Below, piece by piece: positions 9,831 through 64,000 of a DNA stretch of 64,000 bases (position 1 is the stretch's first letter; each line of letters opens with the position of its first letter). Position numbers and translations under genes: made by a program. Under the pieces are notes generated by a model, which had not been told where the DNA came from, searched no databases, and was given only the letters and a program-made list of their open reading frames with translations. This stretch comes from Oscillospiraceae bacterium (GTDB taxonomy: Bacteria; Bacillota; Clostridia; Oscillospirales; UBA929). The stretch spans positions 149,064 to 213,063 of the forward strand of contig WRKO01000001.1 of assembly GCA_009782215.1 (NCBI GenBank), given 5' to 3'.

Positions 9831-10798
9831 TGACGGAAACCCTTCTCTCCGCGCTGGCCGCGCTGCTGGCCGCGCTGGCGTTCGGCGCGCTGCTGCTGCC
9901 GCTGCTGAGAAAGCTGAAGGTGGGGCAAAGAATCCTTGAGGTCGGCCCGAACTGGCATAAGACCAAGGAGGGGACGCCGACTATGGGCGGGTTTGTCTTC
10001 ATGCTCGCCGTCACGGCGGCGGCCGCCGTTTTCGGGTGGAGCGAGTCGGCGGAGGGACGGTATACCCACCTGTTCATCCTGCTGTTCGCGTGGATATGCG
10101 GCGGCATCGGGTTTGTCGACGACCTCGCCAAGGTGAAAAAAAATAAAAACCAAGGCCTGTCCGCACCCCAAAAGCTCCTGCTCCAGCTTTCCGCCGCGGC
10201 GGCCTTTCTGGCGCTGCTTCGGGTTTACGGCGGCATGGGGAGCGAGCTGGCCATCCCGTTTACATCGGTTGTCGTCGAGCTGCCGTGGCCGGTCTACCTC
10301 ACGCTGGCGATTTTATTTGTGGCAGGGATGATGAACGCCGTCAACTTCACCGACGGCATCGACGGGCTATGCTCCGGCGTGACGCTGCCGGCCGCCGTTT
10401 TCTTCGCCCTGCTGGCCCTGACGCTCGAAAGCGCGGGCGTATCCGTGTTCGCCGGGGCGCTGGCAGGGAGCCTGCTGGGGTTTTTATGGTTTAATTTTCA
10501 TCCCGCCAAGGTCTTTATGGGCGATACCGGCTCGCTGTTTTTGGGCGGCGCGCTGTGCGGCATGGCGTTCGCGCTGGACAGGCCGCTCCTGCTTGTCCCC
10601 GTCGCGCTGGTTCATCTGGTGGAAATTCTCTCCGTGGTGCTGCAGGTGTCTTATTTCAAGCTGACCAAGGGCAAGCGTATCTTCAAGATGTCGCCCATTC
10701 ATCATCATTTTGAGATGTGCGGCTGGGGCGAGAAGAAGATATTTGCCGTATTTACAGCAACGAGCGCGGTTTTCTGCGCCGTCGCGTGGTTTGGGTGA
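9827..10798 (+). CDS. mraY: phospho-N-acetylmuramoyl-pentapeptide transferase
   Basis: NAVNFTDGIDGL, GDTGSLFLGG, PIHHHFE motifs; multi-TM. Confidence 0.95.
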   Translation: MMTETLLSALAALLAALAFGALLLPLLRKLKVGQRILEVGPNWHKTKEGTPTMGGFVFMLAVTAAAAVFGWSESAEGRYTHLFILLFAWICGGIGFVDDLAKVKKNKNQGLSAPQKLLLQLSAAAAFLALLRVYGGMGSELAIPFTSVVVELPWPVYLTLAILFVAGMMNAVNFTDGIDGLCSGVTLPAAVFFALLALTLESAGVSVFAGALAGSLLGFLWFNFHPAKVFMGDTGSLFLGGALCGMAFALDRPLLLVPVALVHLVEILSVVLQVSYFKLTKGKRIFKMSPIHHHFEMCGWGEKKIFAVFTATSAVFCAVAWFG

Positions 10799-10802
10799 TA
10801 CG

Positions 10803-11969
10803 ATGGAAGGACTGGAGCAAAAGAGCATAGAGCAGGCGAAGCGCGACATGGAGCGCACCGCCAAGGGCCCGATGGACTTGCCGTTCGCCCTGCTGGTCGT
10901 CCTGCTCAGCGGCATCGGGCTGGTGATGATGTTCTCGGCCAGCTACGCCGTGGCGGACGTCAGGACAAGCACCCCGGCCTTCTATGTTTCGCGGCAGGGG
11001 CTGTATATGCTGATGGGCATGGCCGTCATGCTGATGGTCTCGCGCTTCAACTACAATTACTTCTCCTCGTTCTCCATCCCCGCCATGATTGCGGCGGTCG
11101 TCCTGCTGGTCGTGGTGCTGTTTGTCGGGAGCGACCAGAAGGAGGCGGTGCGCTGGATAAACTTCGGCTTTTTCAACATCCAGCCGTCGGAAATCGCCAA
11201 GGTGGCGGTCATCGTCCTGTTTGCCACCATGATTGCGGCGAGTCCGGGGCGCTTGGAGGAAAAAAGACTGCTGCCGGCGCTGTGGGGCGTCGCGCCCTAC
11301 ATGGGTCTGCTGGTGCTGATTGCGGGGCTGATGGCCTTGCAGCCGCACTTTTCCGGGATTATCCTCATCCTTGCCGTCGGAGGGGTGATGCTCTTTATGG
11401 GCGGCCTTGCCCTCCGGTGGATTGCCCTCGTGGGCGGGGCGGGCATCGGCGGGATGTACATACTGATTACCGCCACCGAATACGCCGCAAACCGCATCGC
11501 CATATGGCAGGATCCGTGGCTGGCGCCGAGAGACGGGGGCTGGCAGACGATTCAGTCCCTCTACGCGGTGGCGTCGGGCGGATGGTTCGGGCTTGGGCTG
11601 GGGCAAAGCCGCCAGAAATATTCCTATCTGCCCGAGCCGCATAACGACTTCGTGTTTGCCATCGTCTGCGAGGAGCTGGGGCTGTTCGGCGCGCTGGTGG
11701 TGCTGTTTCTGTTCATGCTGCTCATCGCCCGCGGGTTTTGGATTGCCCTCAACGCGCGCGACACCTTTGGCAGACTGCTAGTGGCGGGCGTCACCGTCCG
11801 CTTGGCCATCCAAACCTTCCTCAATGTGGCGGTCGTGACCAACCTCATCCCCGTGACCGGGATTTCCATGCCCTTCTTCTCCTACGGCGGCTCGTCGCTG
11901 GTCATCCAAATGGTGGAAATGGGCATCGTGCTGGCGGTATCAAGGCAGATACGGGCGACAAGCCCGTGA
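10803..11969 (+). CDS. ftsW: peptidoglycan glycosyltransferase FtsW/SpoVE (SEDS family)
   Basis: SEDS motifs (QPSEIAKV, PEPHNDFVFAIV, SYGGSSL); ATG 10803 chosen, the 10710 extension overlaps mraY and is Arg-rich. Confidence 0.88.
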   Translation: MEGLEQKSIEQAKRDMERTAKGPMDLPFALLVVLLSGIGLVMMFSASYAVADVRTSTPAFYVSRQGLYMLMGMAVMLMVSRFNYNYFSSFSIPAMIAAVVLLVVVLFVGSDQKEAVRWINFGFFNIQPSEIAKVAVIVLFATMIAASPGRLEEKRLLPALWGVAPYMGLLVLIAGLMALQPHFSGIILILAVGGVMLFMGGLALRWIALVGGAGIGGMYILITATEYAANRIAIWQDPWLAPRDGGWQTIQSLYAVASGGWFGLGLGQSRQKYSYLPEPHNDFVFAIVCEELGLFGALVVLFLFMLLIARGFWIALNARDTFGRLLVAGVTVRLAIQTFLNVAVVTNLIPVTGISMPFFSYGGSSLVIQMVEMGIVLAVSRQIRATSP

Positions 11970-57896: not shown

Positions 57897-58888
57897 GACA
57901 TCTTTTTGTCATCAACCCCCACTCCTTCCGAACCATCGGCAGCTTGAAACGCATTCTGATGGATATGGAAAATTGCTTTTCGGTCGGGCGCAGAATGGAG
58001 TATAAAATCTATATTTCGCGCCGTCCGCGCGACGCCGTCGCCGCGGTGCGCCGGTATCTCCTTACCGTTCCGCCCCAAGAGACGGTGCGCGTCTATGCCG
58101 TGGGCGGCGACGGTATTCTTTTTGACTGTCTGAACGGCATGGTCAGATTCCCGAACGCCGAGCTGACAAGCGTGCCTTACGGGAGCGCAAATGATTTTGT
58201 GCGCGCGTTCGGCGACGACGCGGCCCCGGCGTTCCGCGACATTAAGGCGCTGTCCGCCGCGCCCTCGCGCCCGGTGGACGTTATACACTGCGGCCCGAAC
58301 TTCGCGCTGATTGAAGTGAATGTCGGCCTTGTCGGGCAGACGGTTATACACGCGAATACGTTTCTGCGCCATACCAACCTAAATCGGATGCGCCGTTTCA
58401 CACCCCACGTCTATACCCTTGCCGCGCTGAAGTCTGTGACGAACATGGATATTATACGGCAGAAATATACCGTTTCAATCGACGGGGAGGATATGTCGGG
58501 CAGTTACTGCAATATCCACATCGCAAACATCCCGTGCGACGGCGGCGCTTTTGTGCCAAGCCCCTATGCCGTACCGGACGACGGGCTTTTGGACGTGATT
58601 TTTCTCTCCGGCAACCGAAGCGTTGATGTGATAAAGCGGATTGGCGACCGCAACAGCGGGCATTTTGAAAAGCACACTGCCTTTGTGTACAAAAAATGCA
58701 GGACGGTAACGATTCAAAGCGACCTCCAGCTCTGTACCCAGATGGACGGCGAGGCGTTCTATACGCATGAGGTTACGCTGGAAATCATTCCGGGCGGAAT
58801 CAAGTTTTTCGCGCCGCAGGGTTTAGACTTCGCGGATTACTCGCACAGGGCGTACCGGAAAGAGAAAGGCGGCGGGAATCATGGGTAA
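57893..58888 (+). CDS. diacylglycerol kinase catalytic-domain (YegS/LCB5-like) lipid kinase
   Basis: FVINPHS, YAVGGDGILFDCLNGM (GGDG), VPYGSANDF; ATGA overlap with the regulator gene. Confidence 0.85.
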   Translation: MRHLFVINPHSFRTIGSLKRILMDMENCFSVGRRMEYKIYISRRPRDAVAAVRRYLLTVPPQETVRVYAVGGDGILFDCLNGMVRFPNAELTSVPYGSANDFVRAFGDDAAPAFRDIKALSAAPSRPVDVIHCGPNFALIEVNVGLVGQTVIHANTFLRHTNLNRMRRFTPHVYTLAALKSVTNMDIIRQKYTVSIDGEDMSGSYCNIHIANIPCDGGAFVPSPYAVPDDGLLDVIFLSGNRSVDVIKRIGDRNSGHFEKHTAFVYKKCRTVTIQSDLQLCTQMDGEAFYTHEVTLEIIPGGIKFFAPQGLDFADYSHRAYRKEKGGGNHG

Positions 58889-61607
58889 AGCAGCAAGCAA
58901 CCACAAAGAGAATCGCCGCAGGCTAAAAACTTGGCTGATTCTATCGACGGGCATCCTCGTCATATACGGCGGGATCCTTCTGCTTGACGCGTTTTTCTTC
59001 GGCGGCAGCACCCGCGTCGCGGGCGTATCCATACTGGCTGGTTCGCCGATCATTATATTCGCTTATATCGTGTATTACCTTTTCCCGCAGTTTCGCAGTA
59101 TTCCGCTTTATGTCGGGATCATGACGAATATCGTCTTTATCGCGGTCGGCGCGTATCTGCAGTATTTGGATTTTTATTTCTTTGTGATGATTTTGGTCGT
59201 CGGCACGATAACGACAACCAAAAATGTCAGGCAGATGTCGATTTTTGTAGCGGTATCGGGCGTTATAAACATCTTGGCGATGATTTTCTTAATCCCTAAT
59301 TTGGAATGGCTGAGTACCTTCCGCTTTTTCATGCAGTTTGTCATGTACTTCTTCGGCTCGGGGCTCATGCTGATTCAGACATATCACGTCGAGCAAAAGG
59401 ACAACCGCTCAGAGCGCGCCCTCGCGGCGTTTTCCGCCCTTTTACGCAGCACGCCGAATTTAATGGCCATCACCGACGCGGAGAGCAGGGTGTTGTATCT
59501 TTCCGACCCTATGGCACGGTTTATCCGCTGTCCCATCAAGGAATACGCGGTCGGACAGCCGCTGATAGACCTTGTGGCCGACGAGGATTTGAAGTTTATG
59601 TTTGCCGATATGCTGGACGCGGACGGATTCTTTGAAACCATCATGGAGCTGGACATGGACGGGGAACGGCGGCATTTCAAGATTGTGGCGGATAAGCTCG
59701 GAGGCGAGAACGAGGGGGTGTTTATCGACATCGCCGATATTACGCCTACGGTTAAAAGCCGGCAGGACGCCATAGAAGCGCAAAAGGCCGCGGAAGAGGC
59801 CAATAAGAGTAAAACAAACTTTTTGACCTCCATGTCCCATGAGATCCGCACGCCGATGAACGCGATTCTGGGCGTAGCGCAGATCCAGCTTCAGAGGGCG
59901 GATCTGCCGGAGGAATATGCTTCGGCGCTTCAAAAGATATATCAGTCCGGCAGCAATCTGCTCGGAATCATCAATGACATTCTGGATATGTCGAAAATAG
60001 AATCGGGGAAAATGGAAATCAACCCTATTGAGTATGACGTGCCGAGCCTGATAAACGACGCGGTGCAGCTCAATATCGTACGTATCGGCTCCAAGCCAAT
60101 CGAATTTCTGCTCGACATCAACGAGAACCTTCCCTCAAGGCTCATCGGCGATGAGCTGCGGCTGAAGCAGATATTGAGCAATCTGCTTTCCAACGCCATC
60201 AAGTACACGGAGGAAGGATATGTGAAGCTGTCTATAAGCCATTCGGCCCAAGACGGCGATATTGTGCTGCGGTTCATCGTGGAGGATACGGGGCAGGGGA
60301 TGACCCCGAAAGACCAGAAGCGGCTCTTTTCGGAATACTCACGCTTTAACGCCGAAGCAAACCGTGATGTTGAGGGGACGGGCATTGGACTGAACATAAC
60401 AAAAAACCTCGTGCATCTGATGGGCGGCACGATTGAGGCGGAAAGCGAGTTCGGCAAGGGCAGCATATTCACCGTTACGGTCAGGCAAGCGCCGGCCGAG
60501 TGCCTGCCTATCGGCTCCGAATTGTCGGAAAGGCTGCGGAATTTTACCTTCACCGGAGAAAAGCAGACGGCAAGGCAGAGGGTTGAGTCTATGCCGTACG
60601 GGAAAGTGCTGATTGTGGACGACGTGGAAACGAATCTATATGTGGCGGAGGGGCTGATGTCGCCCTATAGGTTGCAGATTGATACGGCCATCAGCGGGTT
60701 TAAGGCCATAGAGATGGTGAAAAGCGGCAAGAACTATGACGTCATATTCATGGATCACATGATGCCGCAAATGGATGGGATAGAGGCGACGCAAAAGCTG
60801 CGCGGCATGGGGTATGAAGGCGCCGTCATCGCGCTGACGGCCAACGCTTTGGTGGGCAATGACGTGATGTTTAAGCAAAACGGCTTTGATGATTTCATCT
60901 CCAAGCCGATAGACGTGCGGCGTTTGAACGCCGCCTTGAATAAATTTGTCCGGGACAGGCATTCCCGTAGGGACGCCATACATGGCGTCCGCACAGCCGC
61001 ACCGCACATGTATGGCGTCCCCGCAGCCGAACCAACGGACGCCATGTATGGCGTCCCTACAATGGCCGCAATTCCCCCAAAGCTGCGGGAGATATTTTGC
61101 CGTGATGCGGGGAAAGCGGTGGCCGCGCTTAGAGAAACCTCCGCGAACGGCGACGTCAAGCGGTTCACCACCACCGCGCACGCCATGAAATCCGCGCTGG
61201 CGAATATCGGGGAGGATGAAAAGTCCGGGCTGGCGCAGGCGCTTGAACACGCCGGATTGAACGGCGATACGGACTTTATAGCCGCCAACACGGAAGGCTT
61301 TATCCGAACGCTTGAAGCCCTGATTGCGCGCTTTGCGCCGCCGGGAACCGAAGCGGACGAAGCCGCGGACAGACTGGAGGACACGGCGTATCTGGCGGAG
61401 CAGCTTACGATGATTCAAGCCGCGTGCGGGAATTACGACGATACGGCGGCCTACGCCGCCCTTAACCGGCTGAAGGCGCAGCCGTGGAGAAAGGAGACGT
61501 CGGACGCGCTTGAGGCTATCCGCGACGCGCTGTTTCTGCACAGCGACTTTGACGGGGCGGCGGCGATGGCGGCGGCGCTGGCTGAAACGCGCGGGGCGTC
61601 TGGATGA
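58881..61607 (+). CDS. hybrid sensor histidine kinase 1 (6-TM sensor, PAS, HisKA, HATPase, REC, Hpt)
   Basis: H-box SHEIRTPMNAI, N/G boxes (LLSNAIKYT, DTGQGM, GTGIGL), REC (LIVDDVETN..IFMDHMMPQMDG..LTANA), Hpt (TTAHAMKSALANIG). Confidence 0.9.
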   Translation: MGKAASNHKENRRRLKTWLILSTGILVIYGGILLLDAFFFGGSTRVAGVSILAGSPIIIFAYIVYYLFPQFRSIPLYVGIMTNIVFIAVGAYLQYLDFYFFVMILVVGTITTTKNVRQMSIFVAVSGVINILAMIFLIPNLEWLSTFRFFMQFVMYFFGSGLMLIQTYHVEQKDNRSERALAAFSALLRSTPNLMAITDAESRVLYLSDPMARFIRCPIKEYAVGQPLIDLVADEDLKFMFADMLDADGFFETIMELDMDGERRHFKIVADKLGGENEGVFIDIADITPTVKSRQDAIEAQKAAEEANKSKTNFLTSMSHEIRTPMNAILGVAQIQLQRADLPEEYASALQKIYQSGSNLLGIINDILDMSKIESGKMEINPIEYDVPSLINDAVQLNIVRIGSKPIEFLLDINENLPSRLIGDELRLKQILSNLLSNAIKYTEEGYVKLSISHSAQDGDIVLRFIVEDTGQGMTPKDQKRLFSEYSRFNAEANRDVEGTGIGLNITKNLVHLMGGTIEAESEFGKGSIFTVTVRQAPAECLPIGSELSERLRNFTFTGEKQTARQRVESMPYGKVLIVDDVETNLYVAEGLMSPYRLQIDTAISGFKAIEMVKSGKNYDVIFMDHMMPQMDGIEATQKLRGMGYEGAVIALTANALVGNDVMFKQNGFDDFISKPIDVRRLNAALNKFVRDRHSRRDAIHGVRTAAPHMYGVPAAEPTDAMYGVPTMAAIPPKLREIFCRDAGKAVAALRETSANGDVKRFTTTAHAMKSALANIGEDEKSGLAQALEHAGLNGDTDFIAANTEGFIRTLEALIARFAPPGTEADEAADRLEDTAYLAEQLTMIQAACGNYDDTAAYAALNRLKAQPWRKETSDALEAIRDALFLHSDFDGAAAMAAALAETRGASG
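60967..61060. repeat. in-frame palindromic repeat module (two 24-nt inverted arms plus a half unit)
   Basis: GTAGGGACGCCATACATGGCGTCC 60967-60990 is the exact reverse complement of 61037-61060; half copy 61007-61020. Confidence 0.85.
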
Positions 61608-61630
61608 ATACAGAAAAGGGGGCTGTCTCA

Positions 61631-64000
61631 ATGAATGTTGAAAAGCTGTACAAGTATAATTTAAGGGCGGTCATCATCATCACGCTGTTCCTTGGCGGGC
61701 TGAACGTGCTGACCAACCAGTACGCCGCGGCGGGGGCTTTGCTCGGCTTCCTGATGCTGCTGATGGTTGTTTGCGGCATTCTGGCCAGCCGTATTTCCTT
61801 AACGGCGAGAATTTTATTGGTCGTTATCGGGAAATCCGCGATGACATTTTTGAATCTGTTTATGAAGGATACGGTTTATGAGTCGTTCCCGGCATTCCTC
61901 GCGGTCGTTATCCTGACGCAGATTTACTTCAACCGCAAAATTATTGTCATTCAGGGGATTACGCTGACGGCGATACTGGTGACCTATACGGCTCTGAATT
62001 ATGAGATTCTGTTTGAAAAGCATGAGCCGATGGCGATGGCGATATGTATCGCGACGTTGATTCTGGGGGTTATCTTCTCCTACATGATTGCCGGGCTGAA
62101 CAACAGCTTTGTCAAGACCGCGGACGATAAAACCAAAAGCGCCGAGGAAGCGCAGGCAAGAGCTGAGATGGCAAACGCAACCAAAACAAAGTTTCTGGCC
62201 ACCATGTCGCATGAAATCCGTACGCCGATGAACGCGATTATCGGGATAGCGCAAATCAATCTGCAAAAAAGCGGCTTGCCGGAGGAATACGCTTCGGCGT
62301 TCGGCAAAATCAATACGTCCGGGAACAATCTGCTGGGCATCATCAATGATATCCTCGATATGTCAAAGATTGAAACAGGAAAAATGGAACTCATCCCTGT
62401 TGAATATGATATCCCGAGCCTTGTCTACGACACCGTGCAGCTTAATGTCGTTCGGATTGGCTCCAAAGAAATTGAGTTCATCCTCGACATAGACGAGAAC
62501 CTTCCGTCAAGGATGATTGGCGACGAGCTGCGGTTAAAGCAGATTATGAACAATCTGCTTTCCAACGCCATCAAGTATACCGAAAAGGGGCATGTGAAGC
62601 TGACGGTAACCTACGCGATGTGCGGCGAGGATATGTTCCTGCGGTTTATTGTGGAGGACACGGGGCAGGGCATGAGGAAAGAAGACAGTGAAAGGCTTTT
62701 TTCGGAATATTCGCGCTTTAACATCGAAGCCAACCGGACGATTGAGGGAACCGGCATCGGCTTGAGCATTGTGAAAAACTTGACCGACTTGATGAACGGG
62801 ACGATTGCGGTTGAGAGCGAATACGGTAAAGGCAGTACCTTCACAGTCTCCGTCAAGCAAACGGCGGTGGCGTGCAGCGTCATCGGGCCGGAGCTTTCAG
62901 AGCGGATACGGACTTTCTCGTTTGTGGTGGATAAGCAGACCTCGAATATGCAAATAATCCGCGAGCCCATGCCGTACGGGAAAGTGCTGATTGTGGACGA
63001 TGTGGAGACGAATCTATATGTGGCGGAGGGCTTGATGTCGCCCTATCAGCTAACGATTGAAACGGCGATCAGCGGCTTCAAGGCCATAGAGAAGGTGGAG
63101 CGCGGCGGGGCCTACGACATTATTTTCATGGATCACATGATGCCGCTGATGGACGGGGTCGAAACAGCGAAGAAGCTGCGCGCGTCGGGGTATGGCGGGG
63201 TGATTGTCGCGCTGACGGCCAACGCTTTGGTGGGCAATGATAAAATGTTCAAGGAAAACGGCTTTGACGGATTTATCGCAAAGCCGATAGATGTGCGGCA
63301 CCTGAACACGGTCTTGAATAAATTTGTCCGGGACAAGCATTCCCGTAGGGACGCCATACATGGCGTCCGCGCAACGGCTGAACCACCGGACGCCCACGGC
63401 GTCCCCGCAGCGGCGCCAACGGACGCCATGTATGGCGTCCCTACAATGGCCGAAATCCCCCCAAAGCTGCGTGAGGTGTTTTGCCGGGATGCGGGGAAAG
63501 CGGTGGCCGCGCTTAGAGAAACCTCGGCAAACGGTGACGTCAAGCTGTTTACCACCACCGCGCACGCCATGAAATCCGCGCTGGCGAACATAGGGGAAAG
63601 GGAGATGTCCGAGCTTGCGCTTAGGCTGGAAAACGCCGGACTGAATGGAGACTTGGAATACATAGCCGCCGGTACGGAAGAATTTGTGCGCAAGCTTGAA
63701 GCCCTTGCGGAAAGCTTTTCCCCGGAAGCCGCGGAGGAAACCGGGGACATACAGGAGGACACGGAAGCCCTGATTGCGCAGCTTTCAATCATCCAAACCG
63801 CCTGCGGGGATTATGACGACACAGCCGCCTACGCGGCGCTTGACTGGCTGAAAGAGAAGCCGTGGGGGAAAAGGACGTCGGACACCCTTGAGGCTATCTG
63901 CGACACGCTATTTCTGCACAGCGACTTTGACGGCGCGGCGGCGATGGCGGCGGCGTATTTGGCGTTTTGCCGCGGAGACCCGATTCACCCGCCGGGCGCG
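61631..64000 (+). CDS. hybrid sensor histidine kinase 2 (different TM sensor, no PAS; HisKA, HATPase, REC, Hpt), 3' end outside window
   Basis: Manually translated: ATG 61631 after AAAAGGGGG; open to base 64000 (790 codons); SHEIRTPMNAI H-box, REC and Hpt near-identical to kinase 1; absent from ORF track because no stop in window. Confidence 0.85.
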   Translation, partial: MNVEKLYKYNLRAVIIITLFLGGLNVLTNQYAAAGALLGFLMLLMVVCGILASRISLTARILLVVIGKSAMTFLNLFMKDTVYESFPAFLAVVILTQIYFNRKIIVIQGITLTAILVTYTALNYEILFEKHEPMAMAICIATLILGVIFSYMIAGLNNSFVKTADDKTKSAEEAQARAEMANATKTKFLATMSHEIRTPMNAIIGIAQINLQKSGLPEEYASAFGKINTSGNNLLGIINDILDMSKIETGKMELIPVEYDIPSLVYDTVQLNVVRIGSKEIEFILDIDENLPSRMIGDELRLKQIMNNLLSNAIKYTEKGHVKLTVTYAMCGEDMFLRFIVEDTGQGMRKEDSERLFSEYSRFNIEANRTIEGTGIGLSIVKNLTDLMNGTIAVESEYGKGSTFTVSVKQTAVACSVIGPELSERIRTFSFVVDKQTSNMQIIREPMPYGKVLIVDDVETNLYVAEGLMSPYQLTIETAISGFKAIEKVERGGAYDIIFMDHMMPLMDGVETAKKLRASGYGGVIVALTANALVGNDKMFKENGFDGFIAKPIDVRHLNTVLNKFVRDKHSRRDAIHGVRATAEPPDAHGVPAAAPTDAMYGVPTMAEIPPKLREVFCRDAGKAVAALRETSANGDVKLFTTTAHAMKSALANIGEREMSELALRLENAGLNGDLEYIAAGTEEFVRKLEALAESFSPEAAEETGDIQEDTEALIAQLSIIQTACGDYDDTAAYAALDWLKEKPWGKRTSDTLEAICDTLFLHSDFDGAAAMAAAYLAFCRGDPIHPPGA
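63345..63444. repeat. in-frame palindromic repeat module (same 24-nt inverted arms, different middle palindrome)
   Basis: Arms 63345-63368 and 63421-63444 identical to those in kinase 1; middle GGACGCC-CAC-GGCGTCC at 63388-63404. Confidence 0.85.

Follow-up and report, generated by a model that had tools for sequence, protein, structure and literature searches.

The palindromic module in the second of two tandem hybrid histidine kinase genes of an Oscillospiraceae genome is very probably a head-to-head (HH) dimer of GTAG-tagged REPs, that is, a doublet of the REPIN type, which contains a decayed third REP in its spacer, is read in frame in the flexible REC-Hpt linker of kinase 2 (K2) and has a history of insertion and conversion. 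The arms of the module were assigned to the REPs because a GTAG foot together with a GC-rich hairpin is the signature of these elements. According to the proposed course of events, a single REP doublet would have been inserted into the linker of one kinase by way of a RAYT-type single-strand transposase, and the insertion would have survived because about 33 residues were added without a stop codon in a disordered stretch. Gene conversion would then have transferred the module to the tandem paralogue, after which the spacer would have drifted neutrally, decaying differently in kinase 1 (K1) and K2, while a constraint acting on the DNA or RNA, be it pairing within the hairpin or homogenisation of the REP copies, would have kept the arms identical.

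The features on which this interpretation is based are compiled in Table 1, in coordinates of the window, which denotes the whole stretch of 64,000 nucleotides that was analysed. The source assembly comprises 2.36 Mb in 54 contigs and is 93% complete.

Table 1. Features of the tandem kinase locus in window coordinates
Feature	Position	Strand	Description
Hybrid histidine kinase 1, tandem paralogue	58881..61607	+	ORF list and Pfam; stop codon overlaps the start of kinase 2
Sister module, kinase 1	60967..61060	+	Arms identical to those of kinase 2, 46-nt spacer, half REP at 61007-61021
Hybrid histidine kinase 2 (HisKA-HATPase-REC-Hpt)	61604..64000	+	ORF list, full contig ORF and Pfam; ORF continues to window-equivalent 64021
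High-identity K1/K2 tract (approximate)	63266..63600	+	About 88-92% nucleotide identity versus 74% overall; includes the module; read as gene-conversion tract
Module, kinase 2	63345..63444		100 bases; two inverted 24-nt arms and a 52-nt core
REP arm 1	63345..63368	+	GTAG foot and 9-bp stem hairpin GGACGCCAT-AC-ATGGCGTCC; encodes (R)RDAIHGV
Spacer (core)	63369..63420	+	52 nt; homologous to the 46-nt spacer of kinase 1; no other genome copy
Central 17-nt palindrome GGACGCC-CAC-GGCGTCC	63388..63404	.	Probable remnant of a third REP copy; located at the apex of the long hairpin
REP arm 2	63421..63444	-	Arm 1 repeated exactly in inverted orientation; minus-strand GTAG foot; encodes DAMYGVPT

Architecture of the module and its position in the kinase

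The two arms of the K2 module (GTAGGGACGCCATACATGGCGTCC at 63345-63368 and GGACGCCATGTATGGCGTCCCTAC at 63421-63444) are exact reverse complements of each other, and the arms in K1 (60967-60990 and 61037-61060) have the same sequence. The original prediction had described these identical arms as well as a 52-nt interior with the palindrome GGACGCC-CAC-GGCGTCC, and both statements agree with the sequence check. An inverted-repeat search lengthened the K2 arms to 25 nt with 100% complementarity, 50 nt apart. The GTAG foot of arm 1 occupies 63345-63348 of the plus strand, that of arm 2 63444-63441 of the minus strand. With a unit of 24 nt, a 9-bp stem and a 2-nt centre, the arm has the dimensions of the GTAG-tagged REPs, a class of GC-rich imperfect palindromes of 20-40 bp. 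The 20-nt unit is present in four copies in the window, versus 0.05 copies expected from shuffles, and Tandem Repeats Finder detected a 36-nt period with 2.5 copies in the K2 module.

The spacer of K1 retains CATGTATGGCGTCCC, which corresponds to the centre and the right half of the REP, and the spacer of K2 retains both 7-nt half-stems about a shortened centre. The half unit of K1 and the 17-nt palindrome of K2 are best read as different decay products of one ancestral third REP copy, an interpretation drawn from two sequences in which the decay is not polarised. The predicted RNA fold of the K2 module is a perfect 25-bp stem that carries the 7-bp palindrome at its apex (-74.1 kcal/mol, z=-8.58), and a similarly deviating value was predicted for the K1 module (-59 kcal/mol, z=-8.6). 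As in a REPIN, inverted REPs are separated by a short spacer, a single hairpin is predicted and the REPs change less than the spacer.

Both kinases carry HisKA, HATPase, REC and Hpt domains according to Pfam, and the ORF of K2 ends 21 nt past the window edge. The module corresponds to residues ~581-614 of K2 and is located in frame between the REC (aa 461-571) and Hpt (aa 622-701) domains. The ORF translation yields the peptide RRDAIHGVRATAEPPDAHGVPAAAPTDAMYGVPT, in which three D-A-x-x-G-V units are spaced with a period of 12 residues. That both orientations of the palindrome encode D-A-x-x-G-V, as had been pointed out before, follows from the stems GAC GCC and GGC GTC. In an AlphaFold2 model of the REC-linker-Hpt region, built with 37 aligned sequences, the module reached pLDDT values of 48-55 versus more than 90 for REC and Hpt, and the length of the REC-Hpt linker varies greatly among the kinase homologues. 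The region is predicted to be disordered, and the module is translated there as a floppy peptide. Its presence is tolerated by the linker and is probably neutral for the protein.

Divergence of arms, spacer and flanks between the tandem kinases

A comparison of K1 with K2 revealed no differences in the 48 arm positions, along with 38 differences in the 298 positions of the ungapped flank and 23 in the 100 third codon positions of the flank. The cores can be aligned with 35 of 46 positions identical and 11 different, plus two 3-nt indels (6 nt). The arms accordingly differ from the flanks (p=0.005, Fisher), from the flank third positions (p=6e-5) and from the core (p=2e-4), whereas core and flank third positions diverge at the same level (24% versus 23%, p=1.0). 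Since the cores align and diverge at the neutral rate of the flanks, the core is homologous and drifting, not swapped; its divergence is plain drift of an unconstrained spacer. Since the arms are unchanged with respect to both flanks and core, they appear to be held at the DNA or RNA level.

These data lead to a revision of the original prediction, in which the middle unit was regarded as swapped between the kinases, a view that is not borne out by the alignable, neutrally diverging cores. Its argument that plain divergence of a duplicated linker would not produce this pattern applies to the arms, which in the proposed rate comparison fall below the flank divergence, and fails for the core, which equals the flank third positions. 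The assumption of a structured element was upheld, as the arms are part of a structured DNA element that is conserved beyond the surrounding coding sequence. That arm identity is a mere result of the high-identity tract, in which identical runs of 38 nt are present elsewhere, was partly rejected by the contrast with the flanks (p=0.005).

The low divergence of the arms can also be viewed from the protein side. If selection on the peptide had preserved three DAxxGV motifs, for instance for docking or spacing, the DNA palindromy would be a by-product, and the 12-residue period as well as the exact retention of the outer two motifs in both paralogues are in line with this idea. Against it, however, stand the equally unchanged third positions inside the arms (0/16, compared with 23/100 for those of the flanks, p=0.04), the ongoing decay of the middle motif and the predicted disorder of the region; moreover, the closest homologues lack the motif, and the same DNA is intergenic or read in other frames elsewhere. 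Such selection on the peptide is very unlikely and the least probable of the explanations considered.

A function of the nucleic acid structure itself is compatible with a REP origin and was considered in two versions. In the first, the perfect 25-bp mRNA stem, situated between the coding regions of REC and Hpt, would be regulatory, acting as RNase III target, ribosome pause or stabiliser, and the perfection of the arms would thereby be explained; the predicted hairpin is very stable in both genes (z about -8.6), the arms change less than neutral sites, and K1 and K2 hold the only HH homodimers of the genome. Translating ribosomes would nevertheless melt the stem, the Rfam search of the module returned sub-threshold hairpin noise and no relevant family, and homogenisation among REP copies explains the arm identity equally; a regulatory stem is regarded as decidedly improbable. 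In the second, the K1/K2 homodimers would have been exapted. The stem would either act in the mRNA, as an RNase III site or as a ribosome pause by which Hpt is uncoupled from the kinase, or flip as a short intragenic inverton, and the arms would remain identical through selection for such a role and not through REP homogenisation. This version is unlikely, although less so than any other alternative to the REP doublet.

Module-free homologues and exchange between the kinases

The interpretation of the module as an insert in a kinase linker is based on the five closest kinase homologues, all of which lack it and have a short, unrelated linker instead (L006, L007, G000 C7, L008 and L033; the sources are G021, at 67% identity, G005, a third paralogue of the source genome and a tandem pair in G023). 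Homologous sites that are free of the element, the form of insertion polymorphism expected of a REPIN/RAYT system, are thus present among related kinases. The best other match to the module region, K1 and K2 aside, was only 54-58% identical in a search of 5.8 billion proteins. In G013, which belongs to another genus, two hybrid kinases (L009 and L034) contain a different GTAG REP of the GTAGGGCGCAACGCCCTCGGTGCGCC type in the same REC-Hpt linker, which entered this permissive site in frame and independently.

Phylogenetic trees of separate parts of the kinases yielded conflicting groupings. Residues 185-550 of K2 formed a clade with the G021 orthologue (support 100/98), and a grouping of K1 with K2 was rejected (AU p=0.006); the catalytic and receiver part of K2 is thus sister to an orthologue from another genus. 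The linker flanks without the module (74 columns) combined K1 and K2 in one clade (support 92/93), with rejection of the K2-G021 grouping (p=0.014), and the remaining Hpt part likewise resulted in a K1-K2 clade (support 85/93, p=0.028). These p-values are somewhat optimistic because the tree regions were picked after viewing a sliding-window table. The trees show an exchange of the linker and the Hpt part between the tandem kinases, during which the module was probably transferred. The simplest account would be a single insertion event and subsequent gene conversion from one tandem paralogue to the other. The original prediction of a recombining element, for which a test for gene conversion had been suggested, is in agreement with these groupings insofar as recombination was involved.

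The K1/K2 region (58881-64000) presents itself as a mosaic, which points to gene conversion or to an exchange of domains between these tandem genes.

Separate insertion of one REPIN into each kinase was rejected, since the spacers of K1 and K2 have no further copy in the genome, the insertion points coincide to the nucleotide and K1 groups with K2 in the tree of the module-free flanks.

Distribution of the REP in the source genome and in other genomes

The source genome contains approximately 95-105 GTAG hairpins with varied stems. Of 95 such hairpins, 67 are located outside of gene calls, a fraction that is approximate as the genes were called with a crude home-made tool based on codon usage. 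The GTAG hairpins are thus dispersed in many, mostly intergenic copies, as characteristic of GTAG-tagged REPs. Among the REP dimers of the genome, 16 are arranged head-to-head with GTAG outside, four tail-to-tail (TT) and six in tandem (HT), and the modules of K1 and K2 are the only perfect homodimers within the HH group, a distinction that could mean that they are special in some way. The exact REP subfamily comprises eight genome copies, four of them within the kinases; the exact unit GGACGCCATNNATGGCGTCC occurs at four further sites that are all intergenic or at a gene end. Three of these four non-kinase copies have the GTAG foot, and the copy at C3:125227 is without it.

One of the four non-kinase copies (G000:C16:40831-40858) is of the 'double-foot' type, with GTAG...CTAC enclosing one hairpin, and overlaps the end of the upstream gene, whose stop codon appears to be the TAG of this copy.

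The exact 24-mer was moreover detected in more than 106 stretches of other genomes among the matches listed, and more than 140 copies of the exact unit were counted in loci from other genomes. The hosts of the exact 24-mer among the matches listed include rumen and gut Clostridiales, Oscillospiraceae MAGs, Chloroflexi, Patescibacteria and Bacteroidota. In the loci from other genomes the 24-mer is read in several frames or in none, and the peptides VGTPYMAS and GRHxWRPY result from other reading frames. A scan of metagenome contigs for dimers with the same arms revealed three intergenic dimers and no further kinase. The three contigs carry HH dimers with the exact kinase arms, including the asymmetric AC/GT centre, and their spacers are unrelated, AT-rich and non-coding.

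The wide distribution of the arms bears on a further explanation, according to which the module is an intragenic inverton, with arms of 24-25 nt as recombination sites and a core that flips to give two linker isoforms. Intragenic invertons are a described phenomenon, perfect inverted repeats surround a short segment in the module, and the flipped core is in frame and free of stop codons in K1 as well as K2 (the latter giving ...GVRWRRCGDAVGVRWFSRCADAMYGV...). The arms, however, are a generic, dispersed REP with more than 100 unrelated locations in several phyla, not repeats specific to this locus or to an invertase regulon. In DNA of 58% GC an antisense frame can be expected to be open, the flipped peptide is rich in Trp, Cys and Arg and looks arbitrary, and an inverted copy of the core was not seen in the metagenome contig scan. 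An inverton is therefore regarded as highly improbable, if not quite as much so as selection on the peptide.

REP-associated transposase genes

A Y1_Tnp or RAYT gene was not found in the 93%-complete source assembly with the profiles PF01797 and NF047646 or by tblastn with the RAYT-like protein of a relative, and hence the cognate RAYT of a REPIN/RAYT system is missing from this assembly. As a consequence, present-day mobility of the REPs in the source genome is unsupported. Dense mixed clusters of GTAG REPs were noticed on an 11-kb contig (G000:C36:8312-8761 and 10423-10986), one of them at the contig end. Clusters of this kind may break the assembly, and a RAYT gene could hide in the unassembled part.

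A RAYT-like protein of about 165 aa is encoded by several relatives, including two from the same genus. This protein matched the NCBIfam model NF047646 'REP-associated tyrosine transposase' with E=8e-20 and 71 bits, which is below the cut-off of 80 bits. GTAG REPs are located in frame within the RAYT-like ORF in five of the six copies examined, as an HH dimer in L006, L154, L155 and L158 and as a single REP in L157, and none was detected in L156. The exact 24-mer of the kinase arms is present inside or beside a RAYT-like gene at three loci (L061, L066 and L078).

The sequence of the REP within the RAYT-like ORFs varies by genome and its position is kept. In G021, the RAYT-like gene (L006:3003-3500) lies about 540 nt downstream of the K2 orthologue.

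Comparison with described palindromic elements

GTAG-tagged REPs have been surveyed by Di Nocera, De Gregorio and Rocco (2013, BMC Genomics 14:522, PMC3733652), who described HH dimers with spacers of 20-100 bp and sometimes a small stem-loop in the spacer, as well as trimers. That survey reports the same bias in dimer orientation, an excess of HH, as observed in the source genome. Dimers in frame inside ORFs were found to encode 20-30 aa in linkers and loops, and GTAG can provide a neighbouring gene with a TAG stop codon (PMC3733652). The kinase arms correspond to this description in their GTAG foot, GC-rich stem-loop, HH arrangement and translation, and the TAG stop has its counterpart at G000:C16:40831. 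In contrast to the elements of the survey, which includes no Firmicutes/Clostridia, the host is an Oscillospiraceae MAG and the dimer is common to two tandem paralogues.

REPINs consist of two inverted REPs and a spacer with a predicted single hairpin, the REPs showing stronger conservation than the spacer (Bertels and Rainey 2011, PLoS Genet 7:e1002132, PMC3116915). The kinase module resembles them in its inverted REPs, one predicted hairpin and a freer spacer. REPINs are extragenic and accompanied by a single-copy RAYT in the same genome (PMC3116915), whereas the kinase doublet is translated and a RAYT was not found in the assembly. A further parallel exists to subclass 2.4 of TnpA_REP, for which in-frame REPs inside the transposase gene and 'double-foot' REPs have been reported (Quentin et al. 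2018, BMC Genomics 19:475, PMC6006769). The relatives have RAYT-like ORFs with in-frame REPs and the source genome has a double-foot copy; the source assembly, however, is without such a gene, and the RAYT-like proteins of the relatives are likened to this subclass by the trait of in-frame REPs and not by phylogeny.

With respect to insertion into coding regions, the module can additionally be compared to the Rickettsia palindromic elements (RPE), which were reportedly found in protein-coding genes by Ogata and co-workers in 2000. Both are selfish palindromic repeats in frame that are tolerated in surface loops or linkers; the likeness is one of description, as the host phylum differs and so does the sequence family, with a CGTC tag or the longer RPE-1 elements on the side of the RPE. 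RPE-4 and RPE-6 have been equated with CGTC REP families (PMC3733652).

The module is accordingly a clear but ordinary case of an already described phenomenon and opens no new question. It supplies a clean and quantified example of REP doublets that are translated as linker peptides in gut Oscillospiraceae, a group missing from the 2013 survey, and also an example of an insert that gene conversion would have spread from one tandem paralogue to the other while the spacer was decaying. The present analysis adds divergence figures for the three segments of the module region, trees that reveal the mosaic structure, and evidence that the exact REP is widely distributed and associated with RAYT-like genes in other genomes. 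With regard to genome annotation, the data serve as a warning that palindromic peptide repeats in linkers, such as DAIHGV/DAMYGV, are hitchhikers at the DNA level and not protein motifs.

Further translated REPs in the source genome

Translated REPs were also observed in other genes of the source genome. In a fused E1 alpha-beta dehydrogenase (G000:C14:27502-29991), a translated HH dimer of REPs constitutes the linker between the subunits. The neighbouring dihydrolipoyl dehydrogenase on the same contig (G000:C14:30298-31689, L160) contains a translated REP dimer, at residues ~316-342 in a loop, and a translated single REP; the 27-residue stretch of positions 316-342 is absent from most relatives. 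In a predicted surface-type protein of 496 aa (G000:C35:179-1666), a single GTAG REP is translated as VGDAVPSVP between two domains.
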